Virus record (IMG/VR): IMGVR_UViG_2778261231_000003 | Strand: one strand, 5' to 3' | DNA length: 37,653 nucleotides | From: a virus | Taxonomy: Duplodnaviria; Heunggongvirae; Uroviricota; Caudoviricetes | Shown: piece by piece, positions 4,207 through 5,263 of the stretch | Layout of the letters: the number at the start of each line of letters is the position of its first letter | How positions within the stretch are numbered: position 1 is the stretch's first letter | Notes under the pieces: model-generated | What the model was told of the DNA's origin: nothing | Seen by the model: the letters and a program-made list of their open reading frames with translations, nothing else | Database searches by the model: none | Position numbers and translations under genes: made by a program

Positions 4207-4240
4207 GCACGTTCTTGCATACGACGTGGCTACGGGTTTC
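4207..4240 (+). repeat. Direct repeat copy 1 (~34 bp, hairpin-capable), upstream of the GIY-YIG gene
   Basis: GCACGTTCTTGCATACGACGTGGCTACGGGTTTC; near-identical to 5226-5263 apart from 1-2 nt indels. Confidence 0.6.
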
Positions 4241-4427
4241 GAGACCGGTCCAATCATCAAACGAAACATAAAATTAATTCACATTATGAGGAAAAGTATC
4301 TTTTTTATACTATGTAAATTCAAAGGCTTAGCCTCATTTCCCCGATGGTTTTCTCAACACTACTGGTTGTGAGCCCTTGCAATGTTCATTAATATACGTC
4401 TCACAAATAATTCATAGATATTGCAAA

Positions 4428-5201
4428 ATGGATATTACTGAGTTTCCTTCTGGAGTAATTGAACACCTTGGCTGGTATGTATACCGATTGATTGATCCGA
4501 GGGACGGAAGCACCTTCTATGTAGGGAAAGGCAAAGGTAACCGCGTATTTGCCCATATGCGCGGTGAAGTGGCAGCGACTGATGATGACGAGTTACTGAG
4601 CAACAAGCTAAAGCAAATTAGAGAAATAAGGTTAGCAGGACTTGAGGTTATCCATGTCATCCATCGACACGGAATGACTGATGAAAAGACGGCGTACGAA
4701 GTTGAAGCAGCACTTATTGATGCCTACCCTGGGTTAACGAATATCATGAATGGTGCTGGCAGCAATGAATTCGGCGCCGCGCATGTCAAAGAGTTGATAG
4801 CAACATATCAACCCGAAACCATAACATTTCATCATAAAGCATTAATGATTTCCGTTAACAGAAGTGCAAAGGATTCAGAGCTTTATGATGCGGTTCGATT
4901 TAGCTGGCGCATTAATGTCTCTCGCGCCAGCCAAGCAGAAGTCATTCTTGCTACTGTAAGGGGGATCGTTCGAGGGGTTTTCATTGCTGATAAATGGCTC
5001 AAATCAACACGTGAAAATTTCCCTACGATGAAATACTGGGACGAGGATCCGGACTTTGAGGCAACACAAAGTTCTCGCTATGGTTTTGAAGGTCGAGAAG
5101 CCCCACCTGAAATAGCAAATCTTTATCTTGGAAAAAAAATACCAGATGAATTAAGAAAAAAAGGAGCTATGTCCCCGGTCCGTTACTCACCTAATTTTTG
5201 A
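4428..5201 (+). CDS. GIY-YIG / T5orf172-like nuclease-domain protein with uncharacterised C-terminal domain
   Basis: [33 protein letters not shown] is a GIY-YIG signature. Start uncertain: ATG 4428 (MDITEF) or ORF-track 4377; neither has a strong Shine-Dalgarno. Confidence 0.6.
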
Positions 5202-5225
5202 GTCTTTAAGTGATAAGCATAAACC

Positions 5226-5263
5226 GCAGCACGATCTTCTTGCATACGACGTGCTACGGTTTC
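5226..5263 (+). repeat. Direct repeat copy 2, between the GIY-YIG stop and the invertase stop
   Basis: GCAGCACGATCTTCTTGCATACGACGTGCTACGGTTTC; internal inverted repeat AGCACG...CGTGCT. Overlaps the invertase stop codon (5262-5264) by 2 nt. Confidence 0.6.

Follow-up and report, generated by a model that had tools for sequence, protein, structure and literature searches.

Direct repeats around a PD-T4-3/CMoRE restriction gene are probably members of a shared family of 3′-end hairpins duplicated by short-homology recombination

INTRODUCTION

How does a single defense gene come to lie between two direct repeats next to a DNA invertase gene? The question is raised by IMG/VR record IMGVR_UViG_2778261231_000003, a stretch of 37,653 nucleotides of Caudoviricetes DNA (the window), in which a gene for a GIY-YIG protein, identified below as PD-T4-3/CMoRE, is flanked by two similar palindromic sequences, here called hairpin copy 1 and hairpin copy 2. 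A reading of the letters alone (the sequence-only reading) had offered three explanations, namely, the boundaries of a cassette from a site-specific or homing-type insertion, a duplicated bidirectional terminator, and a repetitive palindromic element. The comparisons with Escherichia coli genomes, phages, and IMG/VR proviruses reported here make it probable that the two copies belong to a stem-loop family that marks the 3′ ends of accessory genes and that they are shared module-boundary terminators duplicated by short-homology recombination. The direct repeats are real, but on present evidence they are largely an ordinary shared terminator at a boundary.

RESULTS

Two hairpins of the same orientation flank the GIY-YIG gene

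The two copies share an exact 17-mer, TTCTTGCATACGACGTG, which is located on the plus strand at positions 4212-4228 and 5237-5253; beyond these two sites, the window contains no further match with up to three mismatches (chance expectation, 0.06). When small indels are allowed, the similarity covers about 4199-4242 and 5221-5266, i.e., approximately 40 bp each. The same two intervals, both on the plus strand, were the only strong matches of the covariance model R1 in the 37.6-kb window, with scores of 57.8 bits for copy 1 (E value, 2.8e-17) and 44.3 bits for copy 2, compared with 10 bits for the next-best distinct site; on the minus strand, copy 2 scored 20.4 bits. The repeats had thus been placed correctly, and in the correct relative orientation, by the sequence-only reading, with limits that were slightly too narrow.

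Copy 1 reads CGTAGCACG, TTCTTGCATACGA, and CGTG(G)CTACG, followed by GGTTTCGA, whereas copy 2 is a hybrid, as described below, with AAACCGCAGCACG as its 5′ flank and arm and TTCTTGCATACGACGTGCTACGGTTTCA as its loop, 3′ arm, and tail. The dyad symmetry that had been noticed within each copy corresponds to a stem of 9 to 12 bp, with minimum free energies of −16 to −23.5 kcal/mol as RNA and z-scores of −3.1 to −4.4 relative to shuffled sequences. Specifically, copy 1 folds with −23.5 kcal/mol (z-score, −3.4), and copy 2 folds with −16.3 kcal/mol on the plus strand and −22.5 kcal/mol on the minus strand; direct reading of the copy 2 stem reveals a C·A mismatch. Copy 1 lies in the 5′ intergenic region, about 190 bp in front of the start codon of the GIY-YIG gene at position 4428. 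Copy 2 begins 20 nucleotides past the stop codon of this gene (5199-5201) and runs into the stop codon of a convergent gene, as the TCA at 5262-5264 is a TGA on the minus strand. The ends of the open reading frames therefore bear out the earlier observation that copy 2 fills the space between two convergent genes and abuts the second stop codon. The convergent gene (5262-5816, minus strand) encodes a serine DNA invertase of 184 amino acids with the Pfam domains Resolvase and HTH_7 and is annotated as pinE at homologous E. coli loci.

The GIY-YIG gene encodes PD-T4-3/CMoRE

The product of the GIY-YIG gene (4428-5201, plus strand) matched the PADLOC model PD-T4-3 (PDLC04031) over residues 1 to 256 of 257 with an E value of 2.4e-140. 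Over residues 1 to 257, it matched PDB entries 9U75, the crystallized CMoRE of E. coli O157:H7 (E value, 3.7e-172), and 9U7U (1.1e-150). The only Pfam domain detected in the protein was LEM-3_GIY-YIG. The tyrosines of the "GIYxY-YIG" motif as defined previously (PMC12923530) can be read in the translation as Y17, Y19, and Y31, within L14-G-W-Y17-V-Y19 and Y31-V-G. PD-T4-3/CMoRE is a single-gene defense against T-even phages, a type IV restriction endonuclease that degrades DNA containing 5-hydroxymethylcytosine (5hmC) or glucosyl-5hmC (PMC12923530), and it is active in its native clinical host (bioRxiv 10.1101/2024.12.20.629700). Judged by these matches, the gene of the window encodes this already known enzyme; near-identical proteins are known to cleave DNA with 5hmC or glucosyl-5hmC and to protect against T-even phages.

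The identity of a homing endonuclease was ruled out by the PADLOC and PDB matches, and the same hairpins also surround other genes. Nor does the architecture resemble the homing type: LEM-3_GIY-YIG is the sole Pfam domain, the C-terminal domain corresponds to the part of CMoRE that senses the modification, and the cassette occurs in at least three flanking contexts.

The hairpins belong to a covarying family of prophage stem-loops

Among 5426 complete E. coli genomes, 5269 (about 97%) contain the hairpin, at up to 10 places per genome (median, 3), and 5387 contain the hairpin together with the element of about 150 bp that precedes copy 1, again with a median of 3 places. All examined copies were located in prophages, and the family is also present in the phages lambda/HK630, HK633, phi80, mEp, and Shiga toxin (Stx) phages. 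Of the 120 loci returned by an anchor scan of IMG/VR, about 91 were true; the scan yielded 71 distinct sequences of element plus hairpin.

Covariation was evaluated for 42 distinct sequences, with 500 shuffles as the control. The stem of 10 to 11 bp is kept by compensatory changes: 88% of the cells are paired, compared with 16 to 51% in slid controls, and six of the nine stem pairs covary. There were 22 cells with double changes versus 7.3 ± 3.0 in the shuffles, none of which (0/500) reached as high a number. Examples of the stem variants are CGCAG/CTGCG, CGTAG/CTACG, CCGCCG/CGGCGG, and ACAGCGGTA/TACCGCTGT. G·U pairs are somewhat more common when the plus strand is read, which does not decide the functional strand. 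The 13-nucleotide loop TTCTTGCATACGA of copy 1 is the conserved loop of the family alignment A7.

This distribution bears on the proposal that the repeats are generic dispersed palindromes of the repetitive extragenic palindromic (REP) or bacterial interspersed mosaic element (BIME) type. They are indeed palindromic, intergenic, and repeated. For a REP/BIME element, however, tens to hundreds of chromosomal copies are expected, and the many copies scattered over the genome that such an element would show were not seen; the copy numbers given above, the presence of just two copies in the window, and the restriction of the examined copies to prophage accessory regions leave this explanation with a negligible probability.

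Family members lie at the 3′ ends of unrelated genes

Hairpins of the family are found 5 to 77 nucleotides past the stop codons of dinI (locus L109), ea47 (HK630), an S-adenosylmethionine-dependent methyltransferase gene (L028), and CMoRE. In HK630 (L011), two co-oriented hairpins, at 3151 and 4740, surround ea47, and the order is remnant, hairpin, ea47, hairpin, and convergent tfa. The same layout of co-oriented hairpins is found in L028, where they enclose the methyltransferase gene and a fragment of tfa, and in L109 and L067, where a gene for an SDH-type protease lies between them.

A full-length match to the curated Rfam family CssrB (RF02799), a chromosome-encoded Shigella small RNA, was obtained in L028 (3028-3207, minus strand; 230 bits), and it ends exactly in the family hairpin on the minus strand. 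Both copies of the window likewise match the last ~40 positions of the CssrB model, i.e., its terminal hairpin, on the minus strand. In contrast to the L028 match, the window lacks the body of CssrB, and the scores of 24.5 and 19.2 bits compare with a gathering score of 76; CssrB is therefore not encoded in the window. No other Rfam family was detected between 3900 and 5950, where none reached its threshold and only the CssrB terminal hairpin was matched weakly. A literature search for CssrB returned unrelated papers only, and one on ea47 terminators returned nothing useful. The CssrB match of L028 adjoins a gene for an IpaH-type effector (NEL E3 ligase). Rfam also reported "IS009" matches inside tfa genes, at 4835-5033 in L011, 4879-5077 in L006, 951-1149 in L025, and 2068-2271 (minus strand) in L028.

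With respect to intrinsic terminators, the hairpins possess the stable G+C-rich stem (9 to 12 bp, −16 to −23.5 kcal/mol, with covariation), and some family members carry a GGTTTTTCTTTTT tail. Within the sequence-only reading, a duplicated bidirectional terminator was closest to what was found, since the hairpins follow the stops of unrelated genes and end CssrB; what did not hold is the strict terminator pattern, which is considered in the Discussion. Judged from their sequence contexts, the hairpins are probably a shared, bidirectional transcript-end element positioned where convergent units meet.

Empty sites carry a single hairpin, and copy 2 is a hybrid

The module comprising the preceding element with its hairpin, CMoRE, the second hairpin, and pinE (approximately 4040-5832) was found in 546 of the 5426 complete E. 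coli genomes, in which pinE lies beside the invertible tail fiber segment; the prophage there is e14-like, and its tail module is of the Mu type. Comparison with related genomes that do not have the GIY-YIG gene, a check envisaged from the outset, uncovered sites at which one hairpin joins the left flank directly to the pin stop codon (L004, L005, and the IMG/VR proviruses L022, L095, L119, and L129). Copy 1 is identical to the lone hairpin of L004 and L005 up to GCATACGACGTG. The homology of the window to the empty sites falls into two blocks, 4100-4240 and 5237-5399, and the insert is therefore about 1 kb long; a stretch of about 27 bp from the resident hairpin (TTCTTGCATACGACGTGCTACGGTTTC) is found on both of its sides.

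The CMoRE cassette (from 4217/4230 to 5262) recurs next to tfa in lambdoid prophages devoid of pin (L008 and L009). In other prophage contexts, its homology breaks within or beside hairpins. The hairpin at the right end of the cassette is complete in L008 and L009, where it belongs to the CGCAG/CTGCG type and precedes TTTTTCTTTTTT. As seen in alignment A4, the 5′ flank and arm of copy 2 (AAACCGCAGCACG) are of this cassette type, while its loop, 3′ arm, and tail are of the resident pin type (L004). Copy 2 is thus a hybrid that places a crossover inside the hairpin, and the joining of a cassette-type 5′ arm to a resident loop and 3′ arm accounts for the C·A mismatch in its stem. The left cassette edges, on the other hand, are unequal among the window, L008, and L009. 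Together with the tfa fragment in L028, this speaks for module ends having been joined repeatedly, through short homology or illegitimately, and against a precise site-specific system.

The idea that the repeats are boundaries of an inserted cassette is hence upheld by the single-copy empty sites and by the recurrence of the cassette elsewhere; its homing version is not, and hairpins of this kind also accompany other genes. A target-site duplication caused by a mobile GIY-YIG homing endonuclease gene that inserted downstream of the invertase gene would explain the encoded GIY-YIG nuclease, the direct repeats flanking it, and the single copy at empty sites. However, the protein is the modification-dependent restriction enzyme CMoRE, whose C-terminal half is a 5hmC sensor instead of a homing-type DNA-binding domain; homing by double-strand-break repair makes no duplications of 27 to 40 bp; the same hairpins surround genes that encode no nuclease; and the 5′ arm of copy 2 arrived with the cassette and hence is no copy of a target. 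We regard such a duplication as very unlikely.

Upstream of CMoRE, the cassette includes an AT-rich region (4257-4427, plus strand) that travels with the gene in L001, L002, L008, L009, L021, L029, L071, and L079. This region presumably holds the promoter of CMoRE itself; a simple sigma-70 scan of 4257-4427 detected no promoter-like site on the plus strand.

Neither a specific recombinase nor PinE readily explains the repeats

The same data can be viewed as signs of a dedicated recombination system, in which the hairpins are attC-like sites and a specific recombinase excises cassettes as circles and inserts them into a resident hairpin. At least four unrelated cargo genes show the hairpin-gene-hairpin layout, the empty site retains one hairpin, the hybrid copy 2 is what a reciprocal crossover within the site predicts, loop and stem are equally conserved, and homology breakpoints cluster at the stem base. 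Against this stands the absence of a consistently adjacent recombinase in contexts as different as pin, tfa without pin, and int-dinI; nothing among the examined contexts pointed to a dedicated site-specific recombinase. Copy 1, moreover, is not the reciprocal hybrid of the copy 2 crossover point, its loop being of the resident type. The left cassette edges of L008, L009, and the window vary in a manner that resembles illegitimate or short-homology events, no attC-type RYYYAAC/GTTRRRY cores were recognized by eye, and the tfa fragment between the L028 hairpins fits accretion at a module end.

The comparison with integrons is instructive in this respect. As in attC cassettes, direct imperfect-palindrome sites bound a gene, the empty site has one copy, and hybrid sites occur; unlike in attC cassettes, there is no IntI, core motifs are lacking (by eye), the left ends are imprecise, and the sites are the ends of transcription units. 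The only tyrosine recombinase gene nearby (2234-2890) is not adjacent to the hairpins and is missing from the other cassette contexts. Taken together, excision and insertion by a dedicated recombinase appear unlikely. A broader version holds that the hairpin is a specific DNA or RNA exchange site, read by a phage or host factor, at which accessory and defense genes are exchanged among lambdoid and e14-like prophages. It is motivated by a loop that is conserved like the stem, by breakpoints at the hairpin, and by the brackets around unrelated cargo, and we consider it equally improbable.

PinE itself could in principle use both repeats as direct pseudo-pix sites and thereby delete or mobilize the segment between them. 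Copy 2 adjoins pinE, and its minus strand contains ATAAATGAAACC, which by eye faintly resembles a half-site of the Din family. Din-family DNA invertases require an enhancer and inverted sites. The repeats, however, are direct and not inverted, by eye they lack the pair of inverted 12-bp half-sites that make up a 26-bp crossover site of the hix/gix type, and the same hairpins occur in lambda-like prophages without pin (L008, L009, and L011), so that we assign PinE action a still smaller probability than a homing duplication. Short-homology recombination between shared gene-end hairpins is the reading retained in what follows.

Copy 1 follows an apparent dinI-like remnant

The element in front of copy 1 (4045-4198, plus strand) is a conserved noncoding prophage sequence that always precedes the hairpin. 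Its alignment with the intact dinI gene, 3′ untranslated region, and hairpin of L109 shows 83% identity over 81 nucleotides (E value, 9e-18), and in Stx phages, dinI is annotated beneath the match. The element is also present in lambda/HK630, between ea31 and ea47, and in HK633. On account of the L109 alignment and the Stx annotation, it appears to be the decayed 3′ end and 3′ untranslated region of a prophage dinI-like gene. RefSeq labels part of its minus strand at homologous loci an incomplete "capsid protein" pseudogene, apparently in error. Within 4045-4198, there are also a hairpin able to sequester GGAGG and a short open reading frame, MQKIRKIDNSWKSF..., that is frameshifted in the Qin copy.

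The left cassette edge contains a relic of serU

Between copy 1 and the AT-rich region, positions 4236-4256 (minus strand) align with the anticodon arm of the tRNA-Ser(CGA) gene serU of E. coli K-12 (alignment A5), and this relic forms the left edge of the cassette. ARAGORN found no intact tRNA at 4236-4256. In L009, the cassette adjoins a block of 340 bp (3679-4018) that matches K-12 with 97% identity across the 3′ part of serU and the serU-yodB spacer; this looks like an old phage attachment (att) junction. The arrangement suggests that the CMoRE gene once lay at the att end of a prophage integrated in serU and moved on with the host flank.

Two other interpretations of this junction were discarded. 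Because of a common CCGGTC, copy 1 had been considered the remains of the 3′ end of another pin gene, but the 19-nucleotide match to the serU anticodon arm and the L009 block explain this stretch better. A functional serU attP was not supported either, for the 3′ part of the tRNA that attP should carry is replaced by the hairpin. In L109 (1545-1600) and L067, the dinI hairpin is followed by GGTTTTTCGAGAC, the same bases as those after copy 1, which match the serU anticodon loop.

Genomic neighborhood

Homology to pinE-bearing loci ends at position 5832. A transposable Mu-like prophage begins at 5833, 16 to 17 bp upstream of the pinE start codon, and extends to the end of the window (5833-37653); its segment 5833-12400 is 99.7% identical to Escherichia phage Phi06_2974 B. 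In other genomes, the Mu-like left end adjoins narU, gadC, rumB, and other genes. In the window, it separates pinE from the invertible tail fiber segment that follows pinE in other genomes, and this pinE/Mu-like junction was found in none of the complete E. coli genomes of the collection. The early genes of the Mu-like prophage are located on the minus strand (5994-13608) and include mor, gemA, and genes for an AAA+ B-like protein and an rve-type transposase, whereas a gene for a CI-like repressor and the late genes are on the plus strand.

To the left of the repeats lie genes for a CbtA toxin (86-490, plus strand), a 295-residue protein with weak matches to PADLOC PDC-M01B and to REase_MTES_1575 (1223-2110, minus strand), the aforementioned tyrosine recombinase of 218 residues (2234-2890, minus strand), and an Mrr_cat restriction-endonuclease-like protein without a PADLOC match (3043-3954, minus strand). 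The genes for the 295-residue protein, the recombinase, and the Mrr_cat protein also stand beside the CMoRE module in APEC 102026 (L001). These island genes may represent a small defense cluster.

DISCUSSION

The following reading probably accounts for the observations. The hairpin family marks the 3′ ends of accessory genes, or morons, between the tail fiber or invertase genes and att in lambdoid and e14-like prophages of E. coli. Copy 1 closes the apparently decayed dinI-like remnant, and copy 2 is the 3′-end stem-loop of CMoRE, held in common with the convergent pinE; the hairpins probably serve as a bidirectional transcription stop or as a 3′-end stabilizer that insulates convergent units. 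The ancestral order was probably remnant, single hairpin, and pin stop codon, as it persists in related genomes. Into this resident hairpin, a cassette of about 1 kb, consisting of the tRNA-Ser relic, the upstream region, CMoRE, and its own hairpin, would have recombined by means of short homology. The right crossover probably took place at GCACG within the hairpin, yielding the hybrid copy 2, and the left junction lies at CTACGG(G)TTTC, with a few bases common to the resident 3′ arm and the tRNA relic. Both junctions together would have duplicated about 27 bp of the resident hairpin. The observed duplication is compatible with two routes, one crossover involving a circular form of the cassette or a pair of staggered crossovers. 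Recombinases of the phage Red or Rad52 type use short, diverged homologies and plausibly helped.

Several points weigh against this scenario. A strict intrinsic terminator was defined by a loop of 3 to 8 nucleotides and at least five T residues directly after the stem; a simple terminator scan flagged neither copy, the loops being 11 to 16 nucleotides long, and the tails are GGGTTTCGAG, with only three T residues, for copy 1 and GTTTCATTTATC for copy 2. In addition, the loop is conserved at least as well as the stem (mean majority frequency, 0.875 versus 0.825), which is uncommon in simple terminators and may point to a further role that depends on the sequence. Moreover, TTTTTCGAGAC follows the dinI hairpin in L109 and L067 as it follows copy 1, so that the left junction may have existed before it became associated with CMoRE. 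Finally, the order and mechanism of the recombination events have no unique reconstruction.

The arrangement shares features with several known systems. Prophage morons, as described by Juhala and Hendrix, are reportedly units of promoter, gene, and terminator added between core phage genes. Similarly, the accessory gene of the window has its own upstream region, is followed by a stem-loop past its stop codon, and lies between core modules; it runs opposite to the tail operon, and prophages that are otherwise alike may have or lack it. In contrast to the moron scheme, its stem-loop is not private, as the family is common to many morons and to the dinI remnant, and consequently this moron has a homologous copy on either side, one of the two being recombinant. 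Conserved sequences at the junctions of lambdoid modules are said to figure in the linker idea of Susskind and Botstein, in the boundary sequences of HK620, and in relaxed Rad52-like recombination. The window hairpin likewise coincides with breaks in homology, and its hybrid copy points to a crossover within; it differs from such boundary sequences in being a structured, covarying hairpin with an unusually conserved loop that doubles as a gene-end signal.

The closest counterpart is the lambda b region, in which ea31, the dinI-like remnant with its hairpin, ea47, a second hairpin, and tfa (L011) display the same architecture, including the convergent distal gene, although the cargo of the window is CMoRE instead of ea47 and the distal gene is pin instead of tfa. 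In e14 of K-12 (L003, 5686-7180), the slot after pinE holds mcrA, which is a type IV restriction gene like CMoRE. Unlike CMoRE in the window, mcrA runs in the same direction as pinE, and the covariance model detected no family hairpin there (best score in L003, 10.6 bits). The slot downstream of pin is thus a recurrent home for modification-dependent restriction genes.

The analysis shows how PD-T4-3/CMoRE sits in, and moves among, the prophages of E. coli: its slot beside the tail fiber and invertase genes is the one occupied by mcrA in e14 and by ea47 in lambda. The hairpin family, together with the dinI-like remnant, provides a landmark for this variable, defense-rich slot in prophage annotation. 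Should the conserved loop turn out to act sequence-specifically, prophages might use the hairpin as a genuine site for exchanging cargo, which would amount to a cassette system for the morons of prophage "b regions."

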